From the NCBI GenBank assembly GCA_048939245.1, contig JBHLPR010000039.1:1-19366 (forward strand): a stretch of DNA of 19,366 bases. Direction: 5' to 3'. Under the pieces are notes generated by a model, which saw only the letters and a program-made list of their open reading frames with translations, made no database searches and was not told where the DNA came from. The translations under genes were made by a program, and so were the position numbers. The stretch comes from Promethearchaeota archaeon (lineage in GTDB: Archaea; Asgardarchaeota; Hermodarchaeia; Hermodarchaeales; Hermodarchaeaceae). This document shows positions 2,350 to 19,366 of the stretch, one piece after another (positions within the stretch are counted from its first letter, which is position 1; the number at the start of each line of letters is the position of its first letter).

Positions 2350-2476
2350 GCTCGTTCTATCCCCAAAGACTGTAACCCATTAAACCGAGTTCCTTTCAAT
2401 CCGCAAGCAAGTTCAATAATTCTAAGTCGAGCTTTGATTCTGTCATTTTAAAGCTACTCCAAATTAGATTCTATTA

Positions 2477-2571
2477 GAGGATTTTCTACAAAATCCTCAA
2501 AAAGGCGCTTTGAAATTCTTTACTTTCTTGAACCATCGATTTCAAAGTTTAACCTAGAAATAGCGCCTTTT
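2477..2571. promoter_or_regulatory. Inverted repeats in the divergent kinase/HEAT intergenic region
   Basis: Perfect 9-bp stem GAGGATTTT-ctac-AAAATCCTC (2477-2498). AAAAGGCGCT (2500-2509) pairs with AGCGCCTTTT (2562-2571), with inner TTGAAAT/ATTTCAA. Function not determinable from sequence. Confidence 0.45.
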
Positions 2572-2673
2572 AGAAAAATTGTTGCAAAACGGTGGAGCAA
2601 ATCTCACAGTCATACAGATTTTTACCCTTTCAAACCTAAGGTAATCCGATGGTAAATCTTTGAGGTTGGCATC

Positions 2674-3162
2674 GTGAGCAGCCAGAAGAAAATTGAACAA
2701 TTGGCCAAAATTCTGCAAACCCATCCTGATCCAAAAGAGCGGGCTCGTGCCGTCTTAGAACTGGGTGCCATGCGAAATGGACCTGCATATGAGGCGCTTG
2801 GCATTGCGATGCTTGACAGCTCTCCAGATGTCAGAAAAGCTGTCGTCCAATCTTTTGAGGAGGTGGGTGCAGATTGGGTGCTGGCACCAGTTCTCATTCG
2901 ATTACGCAGCAATGATCCAGGGGCACGAATGGTTGCTTGTCGAGAACTAGGTCGTCTCGGTGATACTGAAGCCGTCCTTCCGCTGATTAATCGACTAAAT
3001 GATGCGAATTTTCAGGTCCGAGTTGCAGCCGCGTACGCGTTGGGCCAGCTGGGTGATACACGGGCCATTGAGCCTTTGCAGCAATTAATGCGACGGGCGT
3101 TGAACATGTCAATGCGCCAAGCCATTCAACGGTCTCTGTCATTGTTAATGCAAAAGACGTAA
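2674..3162 (+). CDS. HEAT-repeat (PBS lyase-like) protein
   Basis: GTG start after GAGGT. Repeated HEAT_PBS motifs (ERARAVLELG, VRKAVVQSF, ARMVACRELGRLGD, VRVAAAYALGQLGD.RAIEPL). Confidence 0.92.
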   Translation: MSSQKKIEQLAKILQTHPDPKERARAVLELGAMRNGPAYEALGIAMLDSSPDVRKAVVQSFEEVGADWVLAPVLIRLRSNDPGARMVACRELGRLGDTEAVLPLINRLNDANFQVRVAAAYALGQLGDTRAIEPLQQLMRRALNMSMRQAIQRSLSLLMQKT

Positions 3163-3274
3163 AATACCTAGACTCAGACGCCTCGGCTTATTCGTTTCTC
3201 TGAATGCATGATTCGGAAAGCATAAAGCACGCAAAAGTAACGGGGGAGTAAAAATTCGGATTGAGTGAAGGGGG

Positions 3275-5314
3275 TTGAAGAAGAATCTAATTTTGTTGGT
3301 ACTCCTTTTTTGCATAATGGGAACTCCGCTCTTGAATTTAACTACCATAACTTACTTGCGAGGGACACAACTCACTGCAGTTTTAAATACACCAAACAGC
3401 GATAACATTTTTGATAAAATAGAACTCAATCCTACAACCTCAAACGATCTTCTCGTAAATGAGAACGCTTCTGATGCGAAACCGATTCCAGTTCCCGCGA
3501 TAATTGATCAGGTTTCATTTTCAAGTTATCAGACTTATCTAACTCATTTATGCAATAATATCGGGAGTCGAGTTTTTCCCTCAGATGGGAATATGGAAGC
3601 AGCCGAATTCATTGCTGACCAATTCGAATTAGCAGGGCTTGAGGTTATGTTCCACGAATTTATCTCTGGTGGACCAAATGTGGTAGGAATTCTCCCTAGC
3701 GGTAGTGTTCTCAATAATCAATGCATTGTGGTGGGAGCACACTTTGACACTATTCCGGGAAGCTCCGATGGAGCTGATGATAACGGATCCGGGGTCGCCG
3801 CCGTTCTAGAAATTGCACGGGTTCTTTCACAATATCAATACAACTATACCTTCTACTTTGTCGCATTCAATGCGGAAGAAATTGGATTACATGGAAGCCA
3901 AGCCTTTGCCCAATATCTCCAAAATAAAAGCATTCCCGTGGCTTGTGTCTATAACTTTGATATGATCCTCTGGGATAACCCGGAAGCACCTGCAAATGCA
4001 AAATATGAAATCATTCATAACGGGGGGGCAAGCGAAGCAATTGCCCTCCATGCCGCCAACATCGGCATTGAAAATGGATTTCCTGTTATTGCTAGTTACG
4101 GACCAGGAATGTGGATGAGTGATCAGGCCTCCTTTTGGGATTATGGCTACCCTGGCGTGTGGTTCTTCGAATCTGCTGGCCTGACTAACCCCTGGATCCA
4201 TTCTGCAGCTGATACCCTATCCCGCCCTGAGTACTCTATTGAATTAGGAGTTACAGCCACTAAAAATGCCGCAGCCGCGCTCGCAGATTTTGCAAAACCT
4301 GTATCTACTGCGACAGGATTTCCACACGCCTCGTTTGTATCGCCAACACCAATAGATTTTGTTCCACCAAAAGCGAATATTCCTCTGGTTATAGAAATCA
4401 AGGATGCATATAATGATGTAAATCACGTTGAACTATCAATCAACGATGAGCCCCTGATCGACATCTCATCCGGATTAAATGCCACTCATTGCACATACTT
4501 GTGGAATGCTACAAATTACTACGGTACTACAAATATACACGCCCGCATCTACGATGCCGTAGGATGGTGCACTAGTACAAGCCACACACTACTCATCGAT
4601 AAAGGACTTCGTCTTGACATCACTTCACCTCAGCCAGGAGAGCAAATCTCCCAAGGTACCCAGTATACAATCTGGATAAATGCTTCCGACCTTGATAGCC
4701 CTCAATTAGCCTATGTGCTTGTCAACGTGAATAACACAGAATGGGAATATGCTATACAACAGACACACAACCAACGCTACTATTACAACTGGACTGTAAC
4801 AGGTGGAGGACCGCTCTCTATTCAAGTCCGAGCACGAGATTCCAATGGCTTTACAAACACCTCCATCGTTGAGGTTTATGTAATCCGTTACCCTCCAGTT
4901 ATTGAGGAGGTCACTATCTGGCCGAATCAACCACAACATACCGACCTAGTTCAAATATCTGCCCGAATTATTAGGAACCCCTTGGGAGCAGAAATCTACA
5001 CTATTTTAGTTGTCTATAGCGTGGATAATGGAAGCTGGAAGACTCGACGATTGCTCCCCTCCGAGGAAGATATCTTTATGGAAATGATTGGACCATTCCC
5101 CATTGGATCCTCCATACGTTTCTATATTGAAGCACAGGATTGGAATAATAACGTTGTACAAGACACCCGTGATGAGTTATATTATCGCTTCGTTGTGACT
5201 GCAAATCCAACTAATTACATACTCATTGGTAGCCTTAGTGTGATTACCTCCATAGTGATTATGAGTGGATTCGTCATTTGGCGAAGAAAACGAAAGCAAA
5301 CTGAAGGCATCTAA
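3275..5314 (+). CDS. Secreted, C-terminally anchored M28-family metallopeptidase with Ig-like domains
   Basis: Signal-peptide-like N-terminus. M28 motifs GAHFD, GADDNGSG, FNAEEIGL.GS, NFDMI, SDQ and IHS..DT. Beta-rich Ig-like repeats (FVSP.., ITSPQPGE..). C-terminal TM helix followed by RRKRK. Confidence 0.93.
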   Translation: MKKNLILLVLLFCIMGTPLLNLTTITYLRGTQLTAVLNTPNSDNIFDKIELNPTTSNDLLVNENASDAKPIPVPAIIDQVSFSSYQTYLTHLCNNIGSRVFPSDGNMEAAEFIADQFELAGLEVMFHEFISGGPNVVGILPSGSVLNNQCIVVGAHFDTIPGSSDGADDNGSGVAAVLEIARVLSQYQYNYTFYFVAFNAEEIGLHGSQAFAQYLQNKSIPVACVYNFDMILWDNPEAPANAKYEIIHNGGASEAIALHAANIGIENGFPVIASYGPGMWMSDQASFWDYGYPGVWFFESAGLTNPWIHSAADTLSRPEYSIELGVTATKNAAAALADFAKPVSTATGFPHASFVSPTPIDFVPPKANIPLVIEIKDAYNDVNHVELSINDEPLIDISSGLNATHCTYLWNATNYYGTTNIHARIYDAVGWCTSTSHTLLIDKGLRLDITSPQPGEQISQGTQYTIWINASDLDSPQLAYVLVNVNNTEWEYAIQQTHNQRYYYNWTVTGGGPLSIQVRARDSNGFTNTSIVEVYVIRYPPVIEEVTIWPNQPQHTDLVQISARIIRNPLGAEIYTILVVYSVDNGSWKTRRLLPSEEDIFMEMIGPFPIGSSIRFYIEAQDWNNNVVQDTRDELYYRFVVTANPTNYILIGSLSVITSIVIMSGFVIWRRKRKQTEGI

Positions 5315-5352
5315 AAACAGTTTCAAGTCAAACGGTTTCAATTCAAGGTTTC
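5315..5352 (+). repeat. Short degenerate tandem repeat (15-bp unit, ~2.5 copies)
   Basis: AAACAGTTTCAAGTC / AAACGGTTTCAATTC / AAGGTTTC immediately after the M28 stop codon. Confidence 0.5.
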
Positions 5353-5461
5353 TATGAGTAATTGATTAGGTTCTAAAAGTTGGATAAATTTGTATTTTTA
5401 TACAAAATCGCCTATACAGATGCCCACATTGTCACAAGTCTAACTACGACGGAAATGATGT

Positions 5462-6745
5462 GTGATGAGTAAGAAATCAAAAAAGTCGAAAAAGAAAGGA
5501 AGCAGTAGGCAAACCATACTCGCTGCTTTGGTATTGATTCTCATCATCACAAATGTCGTCACCCTCGTCTACTTTATGTTTGTTGATCCCTCCGTCCCAA
5601 TAGAAAATATACCCTTAGAGATCGGGGATGTGGCAGCAAATAGTCCATTATATCTGGGGAAACCGCTCACCTTGAAAGGCTACTATGTTATTAGTGCAGG
5701 TTACAACTTGTTGGTTTCACATCCTCTCTTGTTCTTCAACAACTCCCTCAACAATGACAATTATGTGATCCTGACTCGAGGAGTTACCGAACAGATGTCC
5801 CAAAGTTTTGGAAAACAGATCGCTGTGAAAGGCATCCTGGAAAGAGTGGACCCTGACCTTGGGACCCTGGAATTCAGCGTAGAGTCTTTTTTCGACATCT
5901 CCTCAATTGTAATGGAATTTGGTAGCTACGATGATGAATTGTTTTATCCTTATGACTACTTTGATTCTATTCCACACCTCTTTGATCCAAACCCTGAAAA
6001 ATACGCCGTACTATTTAGTGGGGGGATAAAGCCAGAGAAAGCACACTCGCGCTATTGGAATGACATCATTTACATGTATTTCATCCTCCAAATGCATGGA
6101 TACGAATCTGAAAATATCTATGTCATTTACAAAGATGGAATCGGTGAGGATTCCTATACTCCGGTCCATTATCCCGCCACCCATGCGTCGATGAATACTG
6201 TATTTAATTTATTGAGTCAAGAAATGGGAGCAGCAGACACACTCTTCTTCTACACAACGAATCATGGAGGAAGTGGGGGCATCAGTGTATGGGGTCCTAT
6301 GGATTCAAGTGGTGCTTTGACCCATTCCCAAGTATCAAATTGGCTTGATTCCATCACTTGTAGAAATATGATTATTGTAATGGAACAATGTCGTTCAGGA
6401 AAGTTCATTTCACATCTCAGCGCACCTGGACGCGTCATACTAACTGCATGTAAAGACGATCAAAGCTCCTATGGCTGTGATAAGGAAGGCAATTGGGATG
6501 AGTTTGTCTACCATTTCATGTGTGCCTTGGTGAGTATCCCCTGGAATGGCGATGATGTAACCGTTGATGCTGATCTCAATGTTGACGGACAAATCTCCAT
6601 GCGCGAAGCTTTCGTATGGGCTGCAGCCTTCGATAGCCGAGCTGAAACCCCCTGGTACAACGATAATGGAGATGGCTACGGATACCATGTCATGCAGGTC
6701 GCCTTCGGATCAGGTCCATGGTACGGAGATACGATATTTCTGTAA
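5462..6745 (+). CDS. Membrane-anchored C13-family cysteine peptidase (legumain/Gpi8-like, clan CD)
   Basis: Polybasic N-terminus + TM helix. KYAVLFSGG..RYWND..MY.IL..HGY..ENIYV matches the C13 N-terminal strand/helix pattern. Catalytic His in FFYTTNHGG, Cys in IVMEQCRSG, plus ILTACKDDQSSYG. The start may be ATG 5465. Confidence 0.88.
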   Translation: MMSKKSKKSKKKGSSRQTILAALVLILIITNVVTLVYFMFVDPSVPIENIPLEIGDVAANSPLYLGKPLTLKGYYVISAGYNLLVSHPLLFFNNSLNNDNYVILTRGVTEQMSQSFGKQIAVKGILERVDPDLGTLEFSVESFFDISSIVMEFGSYDDELFYPYDYFDSIPHLFDPNPEKYAVLFSGGIKPEKAHSRYWNDIIYMYFILQMHGYESENIYVIYKDGIGEDSYTPVHYPATHASMNTVFNLLSQEMGAADTLFFYTTNHGGSGGISVWGPMDSSGALTHSQVSNWLDSITCRNMIIVMEQCRSGKFISHLSAPGRVILTACKDDQSSYGCDKEGNWDEFVYHFMCALVSIPWNGDDVTVDADLNVDGQISMREAFVWAAAFDSRAETPWYNDNGDGYGYHVMQVAFGSGPWYGDTIFL

Positions 6746-6878
6746 AAAATCCATCAAAGATCATCTATTACTGTGTATAAAAAGAGGCAGTATCACTTTC
6801 TACAACTTTATTCATACAAAATGGAAAGATAATCGCATTTATATTCAAAGATTGTAGAATGGCGCCAAGGTGTTTCTA

Positions 6879-7475
6879 ATGACAGAAGAAGAAATGTCAA
6901 TTGAGAAAAGTTCTGAAGAAAAATTCTGGAGAAACTTGGCAAGACAATATTGGTATATCGCCGTAATTTTCGGTATAATCCTAGTCGGTGCCATTATTGG
7001 TTTCATTCTTACCTTAGACTGGTACGTAAAAGTTTCAGCAATCGGTGGCTTTGGTACCTGGACATTCAACGAATTTTCATTAGGAGAAGCTGTCCTATGG
7101 TGTCTCTTCTTTGTACTGTGGTTACTCCTATTCGTTGGGTTACCAACCATAGCAGCAGGAGGACTTGTCGCTGCTATTACGTGGTTTGTCGTTCTGCCTC
7201 CTGAAATCAAAGCAGAAATTAAGGCACAACCTAAGAGCGTAGCAGGTACAAAAGAAACCGGTGGTAGCGGAGGATTTAGCTTCCTACTCTTTATAGGCGT
7301 ATGCCTTAAAATCTGGCTTGATGGAAACTGGTTCACCAAATTTGCTAGCTTACCAATCGGTTATTTCATATACACATGGCTCTTTGTTCTCGTCTGGGCC
7401 CTAATCATCTTTGGAATACCAGCAGCTATCATAGGTCTAATCTGGTTTGCCACGAAGTATAAAAAAACCGCTTAA
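6879..7475 (+). CDS. Hypothetical integral membrane protein (about 4-5 TM)
   Basis: ORF 6870-7475. ATG 6879 preferred because an SD-like AAGGTG lies upstream. Several hydrophobic helices, no recognised family. Confidence 0.8.
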   Translation: MTEEEMSIEKSSEEKFWRNLARQYWYIAVIFGIILVGAIIGFILTLDWYVKVSAIGGFGTWTFNEFSLGEAVLWCLFFVLWLLLFVGLPTIAAGGLVAAITWFVVLPPEIKAEIKAQPKSVAGTKETGGSGGFSFLLFIGVCLKIWLDGNWFTKFASLPIGYFIYTWLFVLVWALIIFGIPAAIIGLIWFATKYKKTA

Positions 7476-7575
7476 TGAAATCAGATCAAAATCCTTGCAA
7501 CCTCATTCGAGTGTAGTCCTAGGCTACAGTGAAACAAAGGACTGAATGGTTGTCTAGTAAAAAATCTATACTTCA

Positions 7576-7597
7576 AAAACCAGGTCTTACTGGACTT
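7576..7597 (+). repeat. Intergenic direct-repeat motif, copy A (degenerate)
   Basis: AAAACCAGGTCTTACTGGAC-TT, 16/20 identical to copy E. Lies between convergent genes. Confidence 0.6.
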
Positions 7598-7607
7598 CTC
7601 ACCTCGA

Positions 7608-7670
7608 AGCCCCTAGTAAGATGCTTTCAACTTGTTCTAAATTGTTGAAATGTCTTAGAAAATAGGGGCT
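7608..7670. terminator. Long imperfect hairpin between convergent genes (possible terminator or structured element)
   Basis: Nested stems AGCCCCTA/TAGGGGCT, TAAGA/TCTTA and TTTCAAC/GTTGAAA, followed by CTGTTTTTT. Confidence 0.45.
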
Positions 7671-7719
7671 CTGTTTTTTATTCAATCTCACGACAGCACA
7701 CGGATATCTCTATCAACTT

Positions 7720-8337
7720 TCATTTTGGATATCCTACTGTCTGTGCGAATAATATACGCTGAGTAGGACGCAGATTGAATTCCTTTTCGATGCTAACTTT
7801 TTCACAATTATGAAACCATACTGCCAGCCCCGCTGAAGCAGCAAAAAGGTAGACGTTCTGAGCAATGAAGCCTGTATCTGTATAATAATAAGATTTCTGC
7901 ACTTCGGAGTCTCCAATGCTTGGATCCGGTTGGTTTGGTCCAAGATCATAGTGGGAAAGGTCTGCAACATAAAAGATATTTACTGGCGTGTTGCTTGTAA
8001 GGCGCGCTGCCCTACGGCTACAGGAGAATATACGAAAGTCCCCTGCAGAAATAGGAGTCAGTTGATGAGGAATAGCTTCATACAAATAGAGGCCATCCTT
8101 CAATGCTACGTAAAGATCAATTTCTTGAGAATTGCTTGCCGAAGGCGCTGTCCTTCCTGGCTTGTTAAAGCTGGTCTTCTGACGATTTACTCCAAAGGCA
8201 GCCCAGAGGAGGTTTGAAAGAAGCTGAAGTGGAAGCTCTCTCGAATCAATCTCTCGATTAGTCACCCTAAGCTGTAAAGCTTCCAATAAGGTTTTTCCAC
8301 CTTTTCTCTCAGGTTCTGGTAACATAATCGGTTCCAT
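7720..8337 (-). CDS. Nitroreductase family protein (SagB/ThcOx-like)
   Basis: I.LPEP...GG..L.EALQLR.T.R, LSNLLWAAFGVNR, RTAPSASNSQE and DTGFIAQNVYLFAASAGL, ending QTVGYPK. ATG 8337 chosen over 8370 because it follows an SD-like GGGTG and avoids overlap with the upstream gene. Confidence 0.92.
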   Translation of the reverse strand: MEPIMLPEPERKGGKTLLEALQLRVTNREIDSRELPLQLLSNLLWAAFGVNRQKTSFNKPGRTAPSASNSQEIDLYVALKDGLYLYEAIPHQLTPISAGDFRIFSCSRRAARLTSNTPVNIFYVADLSHYDLGPNQPDPSIGDSEVQKSYYYTDTGFIAQNVYLFAASAGLAVWFHNCEKVSIEKEFNLRPTQRILFAQTVGYPK

Positions 8338-8360
8338 TGTACACACACCCTTTCTTGTTT

Positions 8361-9179
8361 TTACTCCCATTTCCGGTAGACAGCTTCGATGCCATCACCG
8401 ACGACTTCAATGTCAGAAATCTCACCCATGCCCGCCTTATGGAGCCACCGAACATGATCAATGGCGTAGGGATCGATTCCAATACATCGCGCCGCAGTGG
8501 CATCTGCTGCGACCGGGTCAACACTTGCGATGATGGTGTCCATCTTTACAGGGGGCCCACTCCAAGGCCCAGGACCAGACTTGCCATAAAAGCCATCGAT
8601 CACACTAAGCGTGGGTGGGAGCGTCCTGCAAATATCATAGACGAAGTTACTTGTACCATATTGATGAAGGCCGTATTTGTTCTGGGTGGATAGCATCCCG
8701 AACATATTCTTCAATCCCATTGTAATAGTTGTATGTTGGAGTGTCTTCATTGATGGCACCGAAATGATCGCAGACTCGATGGCGAGACGGGCTACCTTAA
8801 AGGACTTTATCCCACGATGATTTTCTACCTTTAGTTCAACTTGATCGTCAAGCTTCCCCAAGTTGATATACTTGGAACCCAATCGTTCAATAACCGCCAT
8901 CATCCCCGTCTCAATGATCGCTTCGTCCGGCGAGGTGATTCCCCCCTCGGTCTCAACCACAATTACTTTCTTGTCTAGTTCCTGGAGCTTCAAAATCACA
9001 GCTTCCAATACGATGGGATCTGTGGTGATTCCGGTTTCAAATGTGTGGCTTGTGATAAGATTCGGTTTCACTAAAACTGTTTCATAGGGCTCAAGAGCTT
9101 CTCGGAACGGTATTAACTCCATAGCCCGAAAGACGGGTTTAACACTTCGTTCTCCCTTAACTACCGCTACCAATGACAT
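8361..9179 (-). CDS. DUF362 domain-containing protein
   Basis: VLVKPNL, TTDP, P.MKT..HT.ITMGLKNMFG, IDG..G..GPGP..G and ASVDPVAADA are typical DUF362 motifs. Confidence 0.9.
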   Translation of the reverse strand: MSLVAVVKGERSVKPVFRAMELIPFREALEPYETVLVKPNLITSHTFETGITTDPIVLEAVILKLQELDKKVIVVETEGGITSPDEAIIETGMMAVIERLGSKYINLGKLDDQVELKVENHRGIKSFKVARLAIESAIISVPSMKTLQHTTITMGLKNMFGMLSTQNKYGLHQYGTSNFVYDICRTLPPTLSVIDGFYGKSGPGPWSGPPVKMDTIIASVDPVAADATAARCIGIDPYAIDHVRWLHKAGMGEISDIEVVGDGIEAVYRKWE

Positions 9180-9318
9180 AGCAGTATCTACAGAACATCA
9201 GATATTAAAATCCAATATCAGGTGGAATGTTTTTATTGTGATCAAAAAGGTTCATGGTAAAAGCAATTACAAAAATCTTATACGAATGAATTCGGCTGTA
9301 ACCTATAGGGGAGTTAAG

Positions 9319-9948
9319 TTGCTGCAATTAGCAGTTGATTGGCTGTCTTTGACCAGTTGGTTGCTGCTAGTATTCTTTATTTTACTCATCATAACGATTT
9401 CTTACAACTTTTATCGAGAATGGGGGCGCATTCCTGATGAAAGCCAATGGATCGCTACAAAGGGGAAGCTCCTCAGCACTAAAACCGAGTTTAAGGCTGG
9501 TGTCCGTCTTTCTGTTACACCTAAAAACCCCCGGATTCGTCGTCTTGATCTAGGCTCCTATACGATCTGGCGTCCATATGGCCGAGGAGTAGATTCCAGG
9601 TTCTTTCGCATGCGCCTCCATTTAACTTTAGACTGTGGAATCCACTTTGAACTGACCTCCAAGAACCATGTTCCAGGTGGCATCATATTTGATCCAAACG
9701 AAGCCATAATCGGTAATGAGGTCGTTGATCACCTTTTTTACACGGAAACAACCACTCCCAAAGAAACTAGCACTCTTCTCGAAACTCCCAAACTACTTAG
9801 TCTCATCGAACAACAACCAGAGCTCCAAAAACTCCAAGTCAAAGGAGACCAAATTGAACTTATTTTCAAACGAAAAATCAGATTGCTAGAACCATTCTAT
9901 CAACTGGCACTCATCCTTGCCAATCAGCTCGAAGAACTCTACCTGTAA
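9319..9948 (+). CDS. Hypothetical protein with N-terminal TM anchor
   Basis: ORF 9238-9948. In-frame TTG 9319 follows SD-like GGGGAG. One TM helix then a soluble domain. Start uncertain. Confidence 0.7.
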   Translation: MLQLAVDWLSLTSWLLLVFFILLIITISYNFYREWGRIPDESQWIATKGKLLSTKTEFKAGVRLSVTPKNPRIRRLDLGSYTIWRPYGRGVDSRFFRMRLHLTLDCGIHFELTSKNHVPGGIIFDPNEAIIGNEVVDHLFYTETTTPKETSTLLETPKLLSLIEQQPELQKLQVKGDQIELIFKRKIRLLEPFYQLALILANQLEELYL

Positions 9949-10018
9949 CTCAATCACCCCTTATCGAATTGCGTACATCACAATTTTTCCCCACACTTTG
10001 TATCACTAATATACTCGA

Positions 10019-10050
10019 AACCCTACACCCTACTGAACCTTTTTTCATTT
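10019..10050 (+). repeat. Intergenic direct-repeat motif, copy B
   Basis: AACCCTACACCCTACTGAAC, 15/20 to copy E and 16/20 to copy C. Its tail (C)TTTTTTCATTT is shared with copy E. Confidence 0.7.
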
Positions 10051-10135
10051 TAATTCATAGCTAAGACCTTTAAGGCACTCATTAGCATTACATGATAGCC
10101 ATACATAATTTGAAGAAACGGAGACAGCAAATGAA

Positions 10136-10489
10136 ATGAGTAACACTGAAACTTCATCTATGCTTGTAAGGATTGGTGCCTGGCTCCAGATTCCTTTCTC
10201 ATTCTTTATCATCGTCATTATTGCATGGATGTTTTGGATTTTATGGCCAATTATGCTTGATCCTATATTTTGGACAGCCTTTGGATGGTGGACAACGGTA
10301 CTCTTGGGGTTAAGCATCTTCGCAGGTATATTGGGACTAATTCTCGCACTATTTTGGTTTAAGTGGCGAAATGATATACCTACTCATAAGAACGATTTCA
10401 TTAAGACCGGTATTGTCGGCATGATTTTCACGGGAACGGTTCCCGGCTTACTTGTACTCATTGGAGCAGCTATTCACCCATCCAAATAG
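10136..10489 (+). CDS. Small hypothetical membrane protein (about 3 TM)
   Basis: 117-aa ORF with hydrophobic helices and a C-terminal PGLLVLIG motif. Confidence 0.8.
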   Translation: MSNTETSSMLVRIGAWLQIPFSFFIIVIIAWMFWILWPIMLDPIFWTAFGWWTTVLLGLSIFAGILGLILALFWFKWRNDIPTHKNDFIKTGIVGMIFTGTVPGLLVLIGAAIHPSK

Positions 10490-10554
10490 CACACCAATCC
10501 TCTGTAGAGTAACGCAAAAAAGTGGTGGTAGATACAAATAGTTTAGGTTTTGAA

Positions 10555-10761
10555 ATGCCAATTGCTCACATTCATCTATGGAAAGGGTTCTCGGAAGACA
10601 AGATCAAAGAAATAATTGAGGGAATAACAGATGTATTTGTTAAAATCGGTATCCCCTCACGTGCAGTTGAAGTCGTTGTTCATGAAATTCCCAAAACACA
10701 TTGGGGCGTTGATGGTAAACCAGCAACCCAATCGTTGAAGGATTGGCAACCACCTGAATGA
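10555..10761 (+). CDS. 4-oxalocrotonate tautomerase family protein
   Basis: ATG 10555 gives MPIAHIHL.. with the catalytic Pro1. Pattern G.S....KE.IEGITD.F...G.P..AVEVVVHEIP..HWGV.G. 68 aa. Confidence 0.92.
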   Translation: MPIAHIHLWKGFSEDKIKEIIEGITDVFVKIGIPSRAVEVVVHEIPKTHWGVDGKPATQSLKDWQPPE

Positions 10762-11047
10762 CTCATCGACTATTTATCATACTTTTTTTTATCACATTCT
10801 GAGTAATCAATGATTTCACGTAGAACGTATTTACAGAGAAAATACATCGATTTCAAAATAGGTCCAAAGAAACCCCAATTAATACTTACCATTTATTTGA
10901 ATTAAGCACAGGAATCACTGAAATACCAGGAAGCCTAGTAATGCTTCATCGTCGATTGGATTATACCGAACGAAATATTCAAAATGAAGTGATGAGAGCT
11001 CTAAGTAAAAAGGCGTTTCATACCAACAAATCTTAGGTTAGCTGTCA

Positions 11048-11740
11048 ATGGGTAAAAAAAGCAAAAAACACCAAAAGCGAAAAAAGACTACTAAGCGGAA
11101 AGTGAAGATAAAGAGTGGAAAATCATCTCAGAATTTTCCGTGGATCATTGTATTAGTTATTGTTGTAATCTGTATTGGTGTTGGTGGTGCATTAGTGTTC
11201 TTCTTGAGCACCCCACCGAGTGTTCCACCAGACTCTAATGGAACAAATCTCACAAGAGCGCCAGGCTTTTCATTGACTAGCATAGATGGTGAAGATTTCT
11301 CGCTTTCAGGTTTTCGTGGGCAAGTTGTTGTTCTTGATTTGATGGGGACAACCTGCATTCCTTGTATTGAGCAAATGGAACACTTACATTCAATCGATGG
11401 TCTTTTTGAAGATAGTATTCAAATTATTTCAATTAGTGTATCAGGGGATAGTGATGAGCAGTTGCGCCAATTTGCTTCAGATCACAATATAGATTGGCTC
11501 GTGGCCCGAGATACAGATAATGTTGGAATAGATTATAGTGTTCGCTTCATCCCAACCATTGTTATTATTGACCAAGATGGATACTTAAGAAACCGTCACT
11601 CGGGTATAGCTGCTGCATCAGTATTACAAGATGAAATCAATGTTTTACTGAATGACAATGCCTTTTCATTTGCATTGATTTTGCCCGTTATTGAAGGGTT
11701 GTCAGGAGGAAAAATTCTTTGCTGTCTCCCCTTCTGCTAG
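11048..11740 (+). CDS. Membrane-anchored TlpA/ResA-like thiol-disulfide oxidoreductase
   Basis: Polybasic N-terminus + TM helix. APGFSLTSIDG..FSLS.FRGQVVVLD, CxxC (CIPC), cis-Pro motif FIPTIVIIDQDG. Confidence 0.9.
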   Translation: MGKKSKKHQKRKKTTKRKVKIKSGKSSQNFPWIIVLVIVVICIGVGGALVFFLSTPPSVPPDSNGTNLTRAPGFSLTSIDGEDFSLSGFRGQVVVLDLMGTTCIPCIEQMEHLHSIDGLFEDSIQIISISVSGDSDEQLRQFASDHNIDWLVARDTDNVGIDYSVRFIPTIVIIDQDGYLRNRHSGIAAASVLQDEINVLLNDNAFSFALILPVIEGLSGGKILCCLPFC

Positions 11741-12414
11741 TATTGATTTATCTTGGGGGAATTGTTGCGGCCTTTGGTCCATGTTCTTTAGCGACGATTC
11801 CAGTTTATCTCGGTTATATTGCTGGAAGCGCTAACAGCCTTTGGAAAGGCATTACTTCCGGTATCGTTTTTACTGTTGGTCTCTCCTTAGTCTTTGCTCT
11901 CCTAGGGGCTGCAGCGGTTTTAATCGGAATTTTCTTGCCTTCTGTGGCAATCATCTATGCTGTTCTTGGTATCATCATGATTGTCTTTGGGGTGATGCTT
12001 TTAGGAGTGTTCCAACAATATACTTGTCGCTTTATACCGCATGAAAAAGCCACACGTTTTTCTGGCCCCTTAGGAGCTCTTGTGTTAGGATTGAGCTTTG
12101 GATTTGTTTGGACTCCTTGTGTTACACCTATGCTTGGCGCTGTGTTAATTCTAATAATGTTCAGTGGTAGCTTGCTTGTTGGTGCAGGATTACTCTTTAT
12201 CTTTGGGGTTGGATATGGCACGCCTCTAATCATTGCAGGAGGATTGCTAGCTAATGGTCAACAAATATTGGGAGAACGTTATGAGAAAGCCTCACGTTGG
12301 ATTATGCGTATTGGTGGGATTATCCTAATAGTCCTCGGCATTGACTTGCTATTACCACTTTTTGGGTTTCCAACTTTCATCTTTCGAATTCTGAATGGCG
12401 GAATCGGTCCCTGA
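11719..12414 (+). CDS. ccdA: CcdA/DsbD-beta-like transmembrane electron transporter
   Basis: Two conserved PC motifs (FGPCSLATIPVY, WTPCVTPMLG), about 6 TM. TTG start 8 nt after GGAGGA, overlapping the TlpA 3' end. Confidence 0.9.
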   Translation: MLSPLLLVLIYLGGIVAAFGPCSLATIPVYLGYIAGSANSLWKGITSGIVFTVGLSLVFALLGAAAVLIGIFLPSVAIIYAVLGIIMIVFGVMLLGVFQQYTCRFIPHEKATRFSGPLGALVLGLSFGFVWTPCVTPMLGAVLILIMFSGSLLVGAGLLFIFGVGYGTPLIIAGGLLANGQQILGERYEKASRWIMRIGGIILIVLGIDLLLPLFGFPTFIFRILNGGIGP

Positions 12415-12538
12415 GTTAGATTTTTTGAGACAAATATGGCAGATAGGACCAGCCTAGCGACGCTTTTTACTTTAGGAGATTTCATTTAGTTTTGAAGATT
12501 TTAAAAATGAAAGAAGAAGTTGATTAAATTCGTCTAAA

Positions 12539-13756
12539 TTAACACTCAAGTGCGTTGCTTTTGATTGAATTTTTAATCAGTGATTCTTTGTTTTTAGAAA
12601 CATTGGACACTAGTTTCAAAATCTGATCATATCCCTTTTGAATTAGATATGAAAAGAGGAATATAAACGGGACAAATAATAAGGCGATATAGAGGTTTTC
12701 TGCTGCCAGCATGTCGATCTGGAGACCAAAGGTCATAATTGCTGTAAAGGCGGTAAGAAAGATTCTGTGGAAGAGATAGACACTGTATGTGGAATATGCG
12801 GTTACTGACACAGCTAATACGAGTTTTCTTTTAGAGCCAATAAATCCAATTCCGCGGAAAATAACATTGGATAAGGAAAAAACGAAGATTATGAAGGACA
12901 TGATTATCAGGTTTATTAGAAGAATTGCTGGTGCTAATTGAAAGAAGCTAGAATACAATTCTAGAATAATATGCAAACTGGATGTTCCGTATTCTGCAAT
13001 GAAAGAGAGGTAGCAAAACTGCGTTAAAAACGTGAATGCAATAAAACCTAAAATAGTAGTCAATAAGGGTATGAGGAGTAAGACCTCCGGTTTTATCTTA
13101 CTCAAACGTTCTTTCACACGCTGGTACTCAGGAGAGGTATAAAATAGAGCTGAAATTATGCCAAAGATGAAAATTAAATAGTAAAGGAAAAACCTGTGCT
13201 CAACAAGCCCAAAAACCCCATTAAGAAACAGAAAGAAGAACAGAATACCAATTGAAGCAGGTATAATCCACTTAATTGATTCGAATAGATTCAAGACGAT
13301 ATAAATCAAGTAATAGATCACAATTATACCAATAAACCAAAGCGTGAGCATAGGCGGGCCAAAATACGGAGCTACTATGATTTGCAATCCCAAAAAGTGG
13401 TATATTAAGTAAAATGGGTTAATGCCTATATACCCCACAAAAAAGAGAAACAGGATAATGGCAACCCAATAAAGGGGAAAAACCCGTATGAATCTCTTCT
13501 TTAGAAAAGCGAGGATTTTCTTAGAGGAATTAAGATTTCGATTATTCGGATTCAAATAGAGACCGAATCCTGAAACAAACACAAAAGACCCCATCGCGAC
13601 GTAAATTCCGACATTATTTACTAAGAACACGCCAAATTGATCTAAGTCAAGATAGAAACAATAAGCATAGCTAAGCGGTATATGAATCAATATTACAACG
13701 ATTAATATCGATACTATTCGCATAACATCGAATTCTGGTAATTTCTGGTTTGTCAT
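12539..13756 (-). CDS. Acyltransferase-3 family membrane O-acyltransferase (OafA-like)
   Basis: FD.MR.VSIL.VV..H, FVFVSGFGL, FLKKRF.RVFPLYW, LWFI and SYSVYLFH-like (TYSVYLFH) motifs. About 10 TM. ATG 13756. Confidence 0.9.
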   Translation of the reverse strand: MTNQKLPEFDVMRIVSILIVVILIHIPLSYAYCFYLDLDQFGVFLVNNVGIYVAMGSFVFVSGFGLYLNPNNRNLNSSKKILAFLKKRFIRVFPLYWVAIILFLFFVGYIGINPFYLIYHFLGLQIIVAPYFGPPMLTLWFIGIIVIYYLIYIVLNLFESIKWIIPASIGILFFFLFLNGVFGLVEHRFFLYYLIFIFGIISALFYTSPEYQRVKERLSKIKPEVLLLIPLLTTILGFIAFTFLTQFCYLSFIAEYGTSSLHIILELYSSFFQLAPAILLINLIIMSFIIFVFSLSNVIFRGIGFIGSKRKLVLAVSVTAYSTYSVYLFHRIFLTAFTAIMTFGLQIDMLAAENLYIALLFVPFIFLFSYLIQKGYDQILKLVSNVSKNKESLIKNSIKSNALEC

Positions 13757-13956
13757 CTTCAATTATCTCACTTTGGATGGAATCACGATTCCAGCGGTTA
13801 CTATTTGGTCTATAGTCATAAAGATGACAAGGAGTTTGTAAGACTCGTTCAATTGCAAAACCCAATGTTTCGGCTTCTTTATGCGACTCACCGCTATTTT
13901 GCGATATATATTTGCATGAACCAGCAAGGTTAGGAATTAGCAAAATCACTCATTCT

Positions 13957-13989
13957 ACCTCCCGAAAACGAACCATACGGGAGGTTTTT
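13957..13989. other. GC-rich hairpin followed by a T-run
   Basis: ACCTCCCG-13 nt-CGGGAGGT then TTTT. A second perfect inverted repeat, TGGAATC-ac-GATTCCA, lies at 13778-13793. Confidence 0.4.
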
Positions 13990-14091
13990 CGAGCTATAGA
14001 GTGGAATATAACTTCGATACCATAAGGATAACATTTATTGAAACTAATTTTATTTGTAGTAATTTCGTATGAGCAAAGTCTTATTGCTCTC

Positions 14092-14114
14092 AACACTAAG
14101 CCTTACTGAACTTT
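14092..14114 (+). repeat. Intergenic direct-repeat motif, copy C
   Basis: AACACTAAGCCTTACTGAACTTT. 17 contiguous bp (AAGCCTTACTGAACTTT) are identical to copy E. Confidence 0.88.
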
Positions 14115-14137
14115 ATTCCTGATTTCATATAAAATGA

Positions 14138-14590
14138 TTAAGAGAAATCAAGAAGCGTTCTTTGAAGTTTGGTTTTTGAGAACTCTATTAACATTCCTTC
14201 TTTTAGATGAAAAACAAGGATAACCCGAGTTTCCTTGGGGAACATCTTCATATAGGGGAATTGTTGGATGAGTTTTTTCCAGTAGCCATCAAATTGAAGC
14301 GAATCAGGATAGTGAATTTCAGCGTCAGCAAGGATCTGTAAGACCTTGGCATTTTGTGTAGTTTCAGGAGTAAAGATATCATGGATTTCAAAATGTACCA
14401 TAGGATTTTCTCGGATATTGGCTACGGATATGTGTTCTTTTGAAATTTCTAAGAAAACGTTTGTTCCTTGAACACCATATTCATGGGGAGTCGCATTTGG
14501 TATTCCCGATTTTGAGGATGTAGCCATTGTTAGAAAATGATGGCTTTGAAGAAACTTTAGAGCAATCTCCTCGGGAGTTTTGGCATACAT
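14138..14590 (-). CDS. Pyridoxamine 5'-phosphate oxidase-like FMN-binding split-barrel protein
   Basis: FL..H..LTMATSS..G.P.A.P and H..VANIRENP.V.F. 150 aa. Confidence 0.85.
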   Translation of the reverse strand: MYAKTPEEIALKFLQSHHFLTMATSSKSGIPNATPHEYGVQGTNVFLEISKEHISVANIRENPMVHFEIHDIFTPETTQNAKVLQILADAEIHYPDSLQFDGYWKKLIQQFPYMKMFPKETRVILVFHLKEGMLIEFSKTKLQRTLLDFS

Positions 14591-14679
14591 ATCCTTTCAA
14601 GTGAAAGAGAATAATATTAAATGCATTTCATAAACTAGACAGTGAAAATTGGTTGTACGACCGCCGCCGTTTCACTGAC

Positions 14680-14702
14680 ACACCCAAGCCTTACTGAAAT
14701 TC
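14680..14702 (+). repeat. Intergenic direct-repeat motif, copy D
   Basis: ACACCCAAGCCTTACTGAAATTC. 17 contiguous bp (ACCCAAGCCTTACTGAA) are identical to copy E. Lies between divergent genes. Confidence 0.88.
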
Positions 14703-14805
14703 TTTTGAACAAATTAAAAAGAGAAGATAATCGACTCATCTGACCTTTTATACGACCTATGCTCTAATACCCACTAAACCAATAGAACATGTGCGGGTCA
14801 TATGT

Positions 14806-15837
14806 ATGTCTTCTTCGAGAGTCTCAGGATACGCAGCGAAAGCGGTAGGGCAGCCGCTCGAGCCATTCACCTATAACCCACCTAAATTAGGGGATCATGA
14901 TGTTCGAGTCTCGGTCACGCACTGCGGTGTGTGCCATACCGACATCCAAGCCATTGACGACTACTACGGAATAACCACCTTTCCCTTTGTCCCAGGTCAC
15001 GAAATCGTTGGTTACGTGTCAGCCGCAGGTCACAAAGTATCCGGTTTGAAGAAAGGTGACCGGGTCGGCATCGGATGGCAAGGCCGTTCTTGTGGGCAAT
15101 GTGAATGGTGCTTGCAGGGCGAAGAGCAACTTTGTATGGACATAGTCAAAGCAGGAACGTGGGTCCCCTATGGCGGCTTCTCGTCCTCTGTACTTGTGGA
15201 TAGCAGCTTTGCATACCCGCTGCCCGACGCCATGCCCTCCGAGGTAGCAGCCGTCCTCATGTGCGCAGGGATTGCAGTATACTCTCCTCTCCGATTATAT
15301 ACAGCGCAACCCGCGCAGAAAATTGGCATCATCGGCGTAGGAGGGCTGGGCCACCTCGCATTACAGTTCGCTCACGCGCTCAACTATGAAGTCACCGCCA
15401 TTTCCCATTCTCCAGAGAAGAAGGACGAGGCGCTTGCCTTCGGCGCAGACCACTTCCTCGTTTCGGACGACGAGGCCAGCTTGCGCCAGTTTGAGTTCGG
15501 TTTCGACTTGCTTCTATGCACTGCCTCTGGCAAGATCGATTGGGACATGCTTTTGACCATCTTAAAGAAAAATGGTAGATTTGTTCTTATTGGATTCCCA
15601 GACGTGGTATTCAATTCGACTGACCTCGTAGCACACCAACTGTCGATCACTGGTTCCTTCCTTGGTAACCGAACAACAATGCGGGAGATGCTCTCGTTTG
15701 CACAGACACACGGCATCGTACCTAAGGTGGAGTTGATGCCCATGACAAGGGTAAACGAAGCACTTGAGAAGGTGAGAGAGAACAAGGCACGCTACCGAAT
15801 CGTGTTAGTCAACGAACCCATCGAAGTAGAAGCCTAG
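14806..15837 (+). CDS. Zn-dependent NAD(P)-dependent alcohol dehydrogenase / aldehyde reductase (CAD/Ahr-like MDR)
   Basis: CGVCHTD, PGHEIVG, structural-Zn cysteines CGQCEWC..7..C, MCAG, GVGGLGH, C-terminal ARYRIVL. ATG 14806 (alternative GTG 14791). Confidence 0.95.
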   Translation: MSSSRVSGYAAKAVGQPLEPFTYNPPKLGDHDVRVSVTHCGVCHTDIQAIDDYYGITTFPFVPGHEIVGYVSAAGHKVSGLKKGDRVGIGWQGRSCGQCEWCLQGEEQLCMDIVKAGTWVPYGGFSSSVLVDSSFAYPLPDAMPSEVAAVLMCAGIAVYSPLRLYTAQPAQKIGIIGVGGLGHLALQFAHALNYEVTAISHSPEKKDEALAFGADHFLVSDDEASLRQFEFGFDLLLCTASGKIDWDMLLTILKKNGRFVLIGFPDVVFNSTDLVAHQLSITGSFLGNRTTMREMLSFAQTHGIVPKVELMPMTRVNEALEKVRENKARYRIVLVNEPIEVEA

Positions 15838-15860
15838 ACATCCGATATGCTTTTACTCAC

Positions 15861-15891
15861 AAACCCAAGCCTTACTGAACTTTTTTCATTT
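15861..15891 (+). repeat. Intergenic direct-repeat motif, copy E (consensus-like)
   Basis: AAACCCAAGCCTTACTGAACTTTTTTCATTT, starting 24 nt after the ADH stop. Confidence 0.88.
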
Positions 15892-17102: not shown

Positions 17103-17340
17103 AACATTTACTATAAAAGAGCTTACTTTTCAAAAAAAGAAAGGTGCTCGGAATCTCTCTTGGCGAGTAAGCCCATATACTGCTTATTTTAGAGAATCAT
17201 TTGAGATAGGCAGATCTTCCCTGAAGGCGTTTTAATCATCATACATGTATTTCTTCGAAGACCAAATTGAAGATTTATACGAAAATATATCAGAGGTTAA
17301 CCTAGCAGGTCTATTGATTTCATTCTCATGGTGAGAAATT

Positions 17341-19050
17341 GTGCCTAAAATAATGAAGCTTGCTTCACTCTTCTCCCCGTTATTCCGATTAAAAAATTAT
17401 CTGGAAAGAACCATTGCTCAACCTATACGACGTCATTTCGCACCAAAGCCTTCTGATAGTACATTTGAGCTGGGCAAGTGGAACAATGACGCAAATGTCC
17501 AGACGAAGTATGGTTTGGTTCGTGGGTTTTCAGACAAAGGCATATGGTGTTGGAAAGGAATTCCTTATGGCACGCCTCCAGTAGGAGACTTAAGATGGAA
17601 GGCACCACTTGATCCTATCCCTTGGCTCGGAACGCGTAAAACAACAAAATTCGGTAACTCTGCCGCACAGGTTATGCCCATCATGGGTTCAACAGGTTCA
17701 GAGGACTGTCTCTACCTCAACATATGGCGTCCTAAAAGTTCGGAAACTGAACTCCCGGTTTACTTGTATATTCATGGGGGAGGCAATTCCATTGGGTCAT
17801 CAGACACGCCAACCTACTACGGTAATGCCGTGGCTGAAAAATCGAACTTGCTGTATATCTCTGTCAACTACCGACTCGGTGCAATGGGCTGGTTCAAGCA
17901 CACTGCAGTGACTGGCTCAGGTTCTCCTGAGGACCAGAGCGGGAATTATGGAACTCTAGACCTGGTGAAGTCCTTAGAGTGGGTTAAAAATAACATCAGA
18001 GCTTTTGGGGGTAACCCAGACAAGGTCACAATTGCAGGTGAGTCTGGAGGAGCGTTCAATGTACTTTCACTCTTGGTGTCTCCCTCTGCAAAGAGACTAT
18101 TCCATAGAGCTATTGTTGAAAGTGGTATGACCTCGGTTTGTAGTATTGAGGAAGCAAAAGCCCAGAGTGAACAACTTCTGATTGCTCTTCTTATCAATGA
18201 TAGAAAAGTTGCGAATGAAGCTGAGGCTGTAAAGCACATTAGCGAAATGCAAGATGATGAGATTAATACATATCTACGTACGAAATCAGCCTTCACGATT
18301 ACGAAGAATATTCCAACTATTGTTTTGGGAATGGCCCGATGGCGTTCTATTATTGCTGATGGGACAGTTATACCTAAAGAGGGGTATGATGTGTTTTCAT
18401 CTGGGGAATGGGCAAATATGGTACCCGTGATCATAGGCTGCACAAAGGATGAAATGAACCTCTTTGGTTCTTTCTTTGAAGACATTCCTCGGAGCCCTAA
18501 GATATGGGAATATCATTCAATGCTATGGCGTGCAAATGGTGTCAATAAACCAGCTAGCGAAATGACTGCTAACAGCAACATACCTGTTTATGTATACAGG
18601 TTTGACTGGGGAAGCCCTAATGACAAAGGCGTGAGTGTCCTACCAAAAAACAAAGGACAGAAACTGGGAGCTTACCATGGCGCTGAGTTACCTTTCTTCT
18701 TGGGAACAAGTGGATCAGATTTTGCCTTTTTGATAGGAAAGACACACACGAAGGATAACCAAATCGGTCGTGAAAAACTGAAAGACTTGTGTATGAACTA
18801 TCTGGCTAATTTTGCGAGAGCAGGGGACCCTAATGATATTAACTTACCAAATTGGCCTGCTTGGGACAACACAGAAGGGAAAGATAAGGTTCTTGTTCTT
18901 GATGCAGATTTCAATGATTTGAGGCTTTCATACTCGAGTGAAATAATCACAGTTCATGATGTTCTAGACCGCGTTAATTCTGAGCTTGAAGAGCCGGAAC
19001 GAGGACAGGTATTGACTATGCTCGAAGAGTTTATTCCTTTTAGGGAATAG
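17341..19050 (+). CDS. Type-B carboxylesterase (PnbA-like alpha/beta hydrolase)
   Basis: WKGIPYG.PPVGDLRWKAP, SEDCLYLNIW, HGGG oxyanion hole, GESGG nucleophile, TKDE acid, HGAEL His. Start could be ATG 17353. Confidence 0.95.
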   Translation: MPKIMKLASLFSPLFRLKNYLERTIAQPIRRHFAPKPSDSTFELGKWNNDANVQTKYGLVRGFSDKGIWCWKGIPYGTPPVGDLRWKAPLDPIPWLGTRKTTKFGNSAAQVMPIMGSTGSEDCLYLNIWRPKSSETELPVYLYIHGGGNSIGSSDTPTYYGNAVAEKSNLLYISVNYRLGAMGWFKHTAVTGSGSPEDQSGNYGTLDLVKSLEWVKNNIRAFGGNPDKVTIAGESGGAFNVLSLLVSPSAKRLFHRAIVESGMTSVCSIEEAKAQSEQLLIALLINDRKVANEAEAVKHISEMQDDEINTYLRTKSAFTITKNIPTIVLGMARWRSIIADGTVIPKEGYDVFSSGEWANMVPVIIGCTKDEMNLFGSFFEDIPRSPKIWEYHSMLWRANGVNKPASEMTANSNIPVYVYRFDWGSPNDKGVSVLPKNKGQKLGAYHGAELPFFLGTSGSDFAFLIGKTHTKDNQIGREKLKDLCMNYLANFARAGDPNDINLPNWPAWDNTEGKDKVLVLDADFNDLRLSYSSEIITVHDVLDRVNSELEEPERGQVLTMLEEFIPFRE

Positions 19051-19157
19051 ATAGGCTTCACTGTTCTTCTCTCTTATTCAAACCATATAACTAAGCAGGA
19101 AATGAAGCGATACCAAGTTTTTTTAGAGCAAGATAACCATCAAAATGTTTGTCAATT

Positions 19158-19366
19158 ATGAACATAATTCAGTTAGTAAAAAGGATTGAGACTCCTGAGC
19201 CTTGGAGTGAGGGGGAAAAGATTCCTTGGAACGATTCAGGGTTCAGTGAGAGGATGCTTAAGCATCACCTTACGCAGGAACACGATCTCGCCAGCAGAAG
19301 ATTCGAGATAATCGATAGACACGTTGATTGGATCCACAACAAGTTAGGAGGAAAACCATCCAAAAT
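19158..19366 (+). CDS. Class I SAM-dependent methyltransferase, N-terminal part (runs off the window; absent from the ORF track)
   Basis: Manual translation MNIIQLVKRIETPEPWSEGEKIPWNDSGFSERMLKHHLTQEHDLASRRFEIIDRHVDWIHNKLGGKPSK. The IPWND..FS.RML..HL.Q.HD.ASRR motif is, from recall, the N-terminal signature of a methyltransferase family. The SAM-binding motif lies outside the window. Confidence 0.75.
   Translation, partial: MNIIQLVKRIETPEPWSEGEKIPWNDSGFSERMLKHHLTQEHDLASRRFEIIDRHVDWIHNKLGGKPSK

Follow-up and report, generated by a model that had tools for sequence, protein, structure and literature searches.

A site-specific gene-cassette array with an entry site at a probable heat-shock operator in an Asgard archaeon

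In an Asgard archaeon of the Candidatus Hermodarchaeum type, a short directional repeat delimits gene-sized modules in what is, with very little doubt, a site-specific gene-cassette array. The repeat lies in a stretch of 19,366 nucleotides (the window), contig JBHLPR010000039.1 of assembly GCA_048939245.1, referred to below as contig C29 of the source genome G000, which is 88% complete. Comparison with relatives from the same genus (G003 to G014) and with metagenome contigs such as L232 supports a fuller model, considered probable as a whole, in which a tyrosine recombinase acting in trans joins cassettes through the octamer TACTCACA and in which an operator in front of the htrA gene serves as the entry site.

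An earlier note on the window had claimed five intergenic copies of a 20-mer on the plus strand, at 7576, 10019, 14092, 14680 and 15861 (joints A to E). Recounting gives 16, 15, 17, 18 and 20 matches of 20, respectively; all five copies are intergenic, and the spacings of 588 bp between C and D and 1181 bp between D and E, as well as the numbers of genes between copies, are as described. Three copies have three or fewer mismatches, compared with none in 200 shuffles. As the note found for the window, genes hold no good copy of the motif, and a scan of the genome shows that it is not widespread there either, the only further good copies being at positions 879, 2259 and 4044 of a second contig, C82, all in the same orientation; other matches in G000 score no higher in a profile scan than the reversed-sequence control. 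A fourth joint on C82, at 213, has a different right arm, and the interval between B and C contains at least one extra decayed joint near 13990. The array reaches past the reported copies on both sides. An independent assembly, L228, extends the end of the window through a methyltransferase gene into the start of the next gene, and because that gene adjoins the first gene of C82 in G008, C29 and C82 most likely form a single array, which on C82 runs to a primary site at C82:5201, before htrA.

Clustered same-strand copies are found in nine of the 14 other genomes of the genus (ten genomes including G000), with none in four genomes of the sister genus and none that is convincing in 22 further Asgard genomes searched. 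The array usually has a histidine kinase/HEAT block on one side and htrA on the other, and across the ten array-bearing genomes the same cargo families appear in differing orders. No clear GC-skew switch was seen at the array on the fragmented contigs of G000. The alcohol dehydrogenase (ADH) cassette has five left neighbours and four right neighbours, and on L232 the order acyltransferase, site, ADH, site reproduces the arrangement of the window minus its PNPOx cassette. When 60 sites were compared in pairs from different genomes, a shared left gene (28 pairs) went with 70–82% identity upstream and background identity past +30, a shared right gene (23 pairs) with background upstream and elevated identity downstream, and no pair had both neighbours in common. 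These comparisons uphold the note's proposal of an integron-analogous array whose repeats are insertion junctions, as the enclosed genes are non-syntenic in relatives and breakpoints of gain and loss fall at the motif; its description of A and B as decayed joints is likewise borne out by strong sites at the same positions in other species. Because identity between species has a median of 88.5% for cassette genes (n = 31) versus 71.1% for flanking genes (n = 48), the comparison indicates that cassettes have been exchanged horizontally in recent times. An apparent off-target site on G007:C45 was rejected, as it follows an N gap.

The full site occupies about 52 bp, from -26 to +26 about the first base of the 20-mer. 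In a catalogue of 87 joints, six types of left arm (five cassette types and the left side of the htrA promoter, “promoter-left”) and three types of right arm (“R1,” which is the motif of the note, “R2,” and “htrA-right”) combine freely, with most combinations present, and TACTCACA is the sole element common to all arm types. Because position +2 segregates with the right arm while the bases left of the octamer segregate with the left arm, the crossover is placed within the octamer, just left of the 20-mer, as read from the alignment of joints. R2 arms have a complete palindrome 19 bp further on, R1 terminates in a T run, and the left arm L2 shows weak inverted symmetry with R1 (8/12). Each cassette is made up of a right arm, one to three cargo genes and a left arm, and the orientation of the joints is constant irrespective of gene direction. 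Two other features were considered and set aside: the hairpins before C and D, which are not general, and a reading of the left arms as attC halves, for which no consistent inverse box was apparent by eye.

The entry site itself, at C82:5201 and 8–26 bp upstream of the htrA start, is a perfect palindrome: the octamer is its left arm, and 3 bases separate the two arms. Promoter-left and htrA-right are united in G000, G006, G011 and G014; a cassette-type left arm is fused to htrA-right in G003, G007, G008 and G013, and in G004, G005, G006 and G012 the arrays themselves contain promoter-left fused to the right arms of cassettes. Both types of hybrid joint are the products expected when a circle enters the htrA site. 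About 88 bp upstream of the main entry point is a second, weaker one, and the G007 assembly contains htrA with two different left flanks, a hint of population variation. In G006 (L105, C39:32485–36173), htrA-type joints also form a mid-contig block away from htrA, which includes a displaced copy of the htrA promoter.

The same palindrome occurs in several copies between hsp20 and a divergent gene for a Phr-like regulator (C28:56314–57669, L139, in G000; regulator at C28:57133), where 14 of 15 genomes retain it and no gene has been inserted. Its consensus matches the form of the HSR1 site of Archaeoglobus, CTAAC-N5-GTTAG (PMC9133787), and the intergenic regions of G000 that match it best are those at htrA, at hsp20/regulator and at a gene for a bactofilin-domain protein. 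A Phr/HSR1-like heat-shock repressor, whose binding is inferred, probably uses the palindrome as its operator, and these three loci form a probable heat-shock regulon. In this respect the earlier note needs correction: from the varied gene context of the copies it had argued against an operator, and the crossover core is one half of a probable one. An alternative assignment to HrcA and CIRCE was rejected, as no HrcA was found.

A second cassette array of G000, on C10:1602–2607 and C94:2780–3352, is situated at the operator of the bactofilin-domain gene. Ten genomes have cassettes before this gene, joined within the operator; two of these cassettes are in swapped order in G004 versus G008, the locus is empty in G006 and in three sister-genus genomes, and the copy in G014 holds htrA-type sites in inverted orientation. 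In G014 and G009, joints of the bactofilin type also mark a third accessory region (L241:8431 and L242:7814–8499). Two more arrays in G000 (C19:15525–20972 and C42:378–37600) consist of co-oriented intergenic repeats with unrelated cores.

Some evidence about the source of the cargo comes from the ADH gene, homologues of which are found at 77–84% identity in bacteria, Thorarchaeota and Hodarchaeota. In one bacterium an 83% identical homologue is an integron cassette, with a textbook attC hairpin before it and an attC-like inverse box after it; the homologue in Thorarchaeota lies between other direct repeats. Because the gene thus sits as an attC-flanked cassette in a bacterium, at least one cargo gene is drawn from a pool common to integrons. 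In WOR-3 bacteria (L231:5870–5950) an ADH homologue is preceded by a short stub, which we take to resemble the N terminus of an integron integrase. Within the window, the ADH kilobase (14791–15837) has about 49% G+C, compared with 36–39% in the two kilobases before it, and the likely start at 14806 matches that of the homologues.

In the proposed mechanism, strands are exchanged inside TACTCACA, as the comparison of joints shows. A cassette circle would enter the htrA site to yield promoter-left joined to cassette-right and cassette-left joined to htrA-right, and repeated entry, excision and re-entry would stack and reorder the cassettes while distal joints decay. Each insertion would place new cargo behind a displaced htrA promoter. 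A near-invariant overlap of 7–8 bp fits the lambda-family chemistry of tyrosine recombinases, and the presence of such an overlap here, between T-rich and A-rich flanks, points to an enzyme of this type acting in trans.

The only tyrosine recombinase found in G000 is XerA, a protein of 315 aa that scores above the NF040815 cut-off, has conserved catalytic motif residues and is encoded at C82:20497, 15 kb past htrA; the distance is 10–18 kb in the five genomes with both genes on one contig. The relatives of this protein are what assign the source organism to the Candidatus Hermodarchaeum type. XerA is present in 12–13 of the 15 genomes of the genus versus none of four from the sister genus, which also lack arrays where this could be checked. 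An endonuclease VII-like gene (C82:17163–17777, L122) lies between htrA and xerA, also in G003, and a conserved 10-base box forms an inverted pair around xerA (C82:20351 and 21549), with the upstream copy kept across the genus. No match to the IntI model TIGR02249 exceeds the cut-off in 15 genomes, the score of XerA being 164 against a cut-off of 265, and PF07508 has no match in the same incomplete genomes. Serine recombinases, IS110, rve, DDE_Tnp_1, Y1/HUH, SSV-type integrase, reverse transcriptase and Cas1 were not found in the incomplete genome G000. P4-type integrases on two contigs of G013 (C49 and C238), with an IntI-like N-terminal piece on C49, are probably bacterial contaminants of the bin. 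The 524-aa gene after htrA was rejected as a recombinase because its product is not recombinase-like. If the model holds, the host XerA is by a small margin the likeliest enzyme, closely followed by the integrase of a visiting element and then by some other enzyme, and none of the three reaches even odds.

Several observations weigh against this model. The co-occurrence of XerA and arrays is a single phylogenetic contrast among incomplete genomes, no conserved dif near xerA and no convincing canonical dif in the genome was found to indicate the target of XerA, and the cassette site is not of the 11-6-11 form. No enzyme is linked to the site, and none adjoins the htrA entry site. The Phr-like regulator scores far under the NCBIfam Phr cut-off (62.8 versus 320 bits), and because the hsp20/regulator operator never carries cassettes, an operator alone is insufficient for entry. 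Site decay and cassette identity are not monotonic with distance from htrA. Finally, cassette circles and excision were not observed and enter the model by inference.

The alternative that survives best, doubtful as it is, is that the arrays arose only by accretion like that of cis-mobilizable elements (CIMEs), in which viruses or islands bearing an integrase insert at the operator and decay by internal deletion to integrase-less remnants, which need a new helper in order to move. It has the same recombination anatomy as the preferred model, and overlaps it, without a standing host system. A three-step model of accretion is established (PMC5704250), as exemplified also by the ssrA islands of Dehalococcoides (PMC3146451); several arm types could stem from several related elements, arrays with unrelated sites exist elsewhere in the genome, and a 4-base microhomology right after the stop of the ADH gene marks its junction with the L2 arm, as a deletion would leave. 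No element with a cognate integrase was found at the site, but assemblies break at the array, and a helper element may have been missed by the bins. However, mapping of the array contigs of 11 genomes and of 10 metagenome contigs revealed no integrase, with most but not necessarily all cargo genes annotated, and the second tyrosine recombinases of relatives, rejected as candidates for the enzyme, have no strong site within 1.5 kb. Searches of viral, phage and plasmid collections returned only chance matches to the site, and single cassettes change order independently. A bolder proposal, and a rather unlikely one, is that capture is host-encoded and integrase-less: XerA or another resident enzyme would recombine cassettes into heat-shock operators, with the repressor selecting or gating entry and stress both opening the sites and switching on the newest cargo.

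Target-specific transposition, in which non-autonomous cassettes with fixed ends would be moved by a transposase in trans with an 8-bp target duplication, is improbable. Tandem insertion would yield the same end-core-end pattern, and the weak symmetry of L2 and R1 is in keeping with it, but six left and three right arm types that mix freely are not terminal inverted repeats, and the rve, DDE_Tnp_1, IS110, Y1 and Cas1 families are among those missing from the 88% of G000 available. It is more improbable still that the repeats are purely regulatory, as relics of operators or terminators between which ordinary recombination has reordered the genes. Such a reading would account for the half-operator core, the R2 palindrome and the R1 T run, yet the exchanges map to 8 bp between otherwise unrelated arms, the htrA promoter contains nothing from which R1 could derive, and the orientation is fixed whatever the direction of the genes. 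A tract of 8 bp is too short for recombination of the RecA/RadA type, which argues against ordinary recombination.

The earlier note's reading of the repeat as a non-attC site also stands, as none of the 60 sites carries the R'' and R' boxes. Mean folding z scores for 57 sites range from -0.28 to 0.08, no better than shuffles for a single-strand hairpin, whereas attC as a positive control gives -2.7; a 9-of-12 inverse core is found upstream in 12% of sites versus 4% of shuffles. The joints do not have the form of a 28-bp dif-like site, with two 11-bp arms and 6 bp between them. An 11-mer in the htrA promoter matches a XerD arm at 10 of 11 positions, as well as about 3% of shuffles do, but it stands without a second arm, 33 bp away from the crossover. 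Despite this 11-mer, the enrichment of integrons in Asgard archaea (Ghaly et al. 2022, PMC9668308) and the status of ADH as an integron cassette elsewhere, an integrase-free attC cluster (CALIN) or a series of dif modules is scarcely credible given the boxes, the folding, the unpaired arm and the lack of IntI above cut-off in 15 genomes. The site has no Rfam match, and its intervals of 0.6–4 kb are unlike the short spacers of clustered regularly interspaced short palindromic repeats (CRISPR), in a genome in which no Cas1 was found.

The joints and cassettes of the window are collected in Table 1.

Table 1. Joints, cassettes and flanking genes in the window (positions of the 19,366-nucleotide stretch)
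Feature	Positions	Strand	Details
Joint A, decayed	7550–7601	+	Core 7569–7576; strong site at the same place after the 201-aa gene in G013
Joint B, decayed	9993–10044	+	Core 10012–10019
Joint C	14066–14117	+	Core 14085–14092; homology of the PNPOx cassette to G011 and G012 begins at 14084
Joint D	14654–14705	+	Left arm L1, right arm R1; core 14673–14680
Joint E, consensus site	15835–15886	+	L2 and R1; core TACTCACA at 15854–15861
ADH cassette, 1181 bp	14680–15861	+	Zn alcohol dehydrogenase, 14806–15837
PNPOx-family cassette, 588 bp	14092–14680	-	Gene 14138–14590
Cassette of 117-aa membrane protein and tautomerase	10019–10880	+	Bounded by two sites in G013:C337; right joint decayed, 10880 approximate
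Acyltransferase cassette	12539–13990	-	Decayed left arm of joint at about 13946–13990
Cargo between A and B	7720–9948		Nitroreductase, DUF362, 236-aa protein
Cargo	11048–12414	+	AhpC/TSA redoxin and DsbD/CcdA-type membrane protein
Old distal cassettes	5462–7475	+	C13 peptidase and 201-aa membrane protein; joints lost in window
Carboxylesterase cassette	17206–19090	+	Joints lost in window
Methyltransferase cargo	19149–19366	+	Array runs off the contig here
Conserved left flank, outside array	76–3162		Histidine kinase, HEAT-repeat gene

Many of these units have a different setting in relatives. The right flank of joint B is common to G013:C337, with homology beginning at 10031 and a different left neighbour; the PNPOx cassette sits between different neighbours in G011, G012 and G014, as does the ADH cassette in G006 and L232, and the end of the acyltransferase cassette leads into an intact site in L232. 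Of the cassettes whose joints are lost in the window, those of the C13 peptidase and the 201-aa protein are bounded by sites in G004, G005 and G013 (72–76% identity to relatives), and that of the carboxylesterase is so bounded in G011, G012 and G013 (88–91%). M28 and C13 peptidase genes adjoin at 3275–6745, a pairing that looks accidental because the C13 cassette occurs without M28 in G004, G005 and G011. On C82, an ACR3-type transporter and an ArsR repressor form one cassette (2259–4044) that is also present in G006, G013 and L232.

The joints offer a base-resolved view of how accessory genes are taken up and reshuffled in one Asgard lineage, by a route, open to a gene that circulates as a bacterial integron cassette, that escapes integron searches based on attC. 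Entry sites at probable heat-shock operators of two unlinked promoters suggest that stress control and gene capture are linked at the site itself rather than via expression of an integrase. If capture is host-encoded, genes would be recruited from the bacterial integron pool by chemistry unrelated to attC. Short sites and two small candidate proteins put an in vitro test of the claim within reach, with no need for a culture of the archaeon.

No description of this cassette system was found in a literature search, and each of the known systems it resembles differs from it in some respects. As in sedentary integrons and CALINs, tandem cassettes of one to three genes with co-oriented joints are reordered behind one entry site that follows a promoter, and some cargo is shared with bacterial integrons. 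Unlike those systems, the array lacks attC boxes, hairpin, IntI and an integrase beside the entry site; its cargo genes face either way, the 5' end of the cassette holds the conserved arm, and the entry site is inside a probable repressor operator. Modules mobilised by Xer, such as pdif modules and IMEX (integrative mobile elements exploiting Xer) tandems at dif, are similar in having no integrase and possibly in the use of host Xer, but the present site is not 11-6-11 with dif-like arms, and its copies are all direct, whereas pdif sites alternate. CIMEs and accretion arrays, as in Streptococcus (PMC5704250) and the Dehalococcoides ssrA islands (PMC3146451), are likewise stacks of units that carry no integrase and are flanked by hybrid att sites; these too build up at a single chromosomal target and retain displaced copies of its sequence. 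Here, however, the target is a promoter operator 5' of a gene rather than a tRNA or the 3' end of a gene, the units are 0.6–2 kb with no integrase-bearing member seen, they reorder singly across species, and the operator is common to two unlinked targets. The Phr regulon of Pyrococcus and the HSR1 regulon of Archaeoglobus (PMC9133787) share a regulator that adjoins hsp20 and an AC-N5-GT palindrome that overlaps the promoter; operators of this type as recombination targets were not reported in the literature searched, whereas two of the operator-bearing promoters described here double as such targets. In its workings the array resembles both integrons and CIME accretion, but it belongs neither to the integrons nor to the dif modules.

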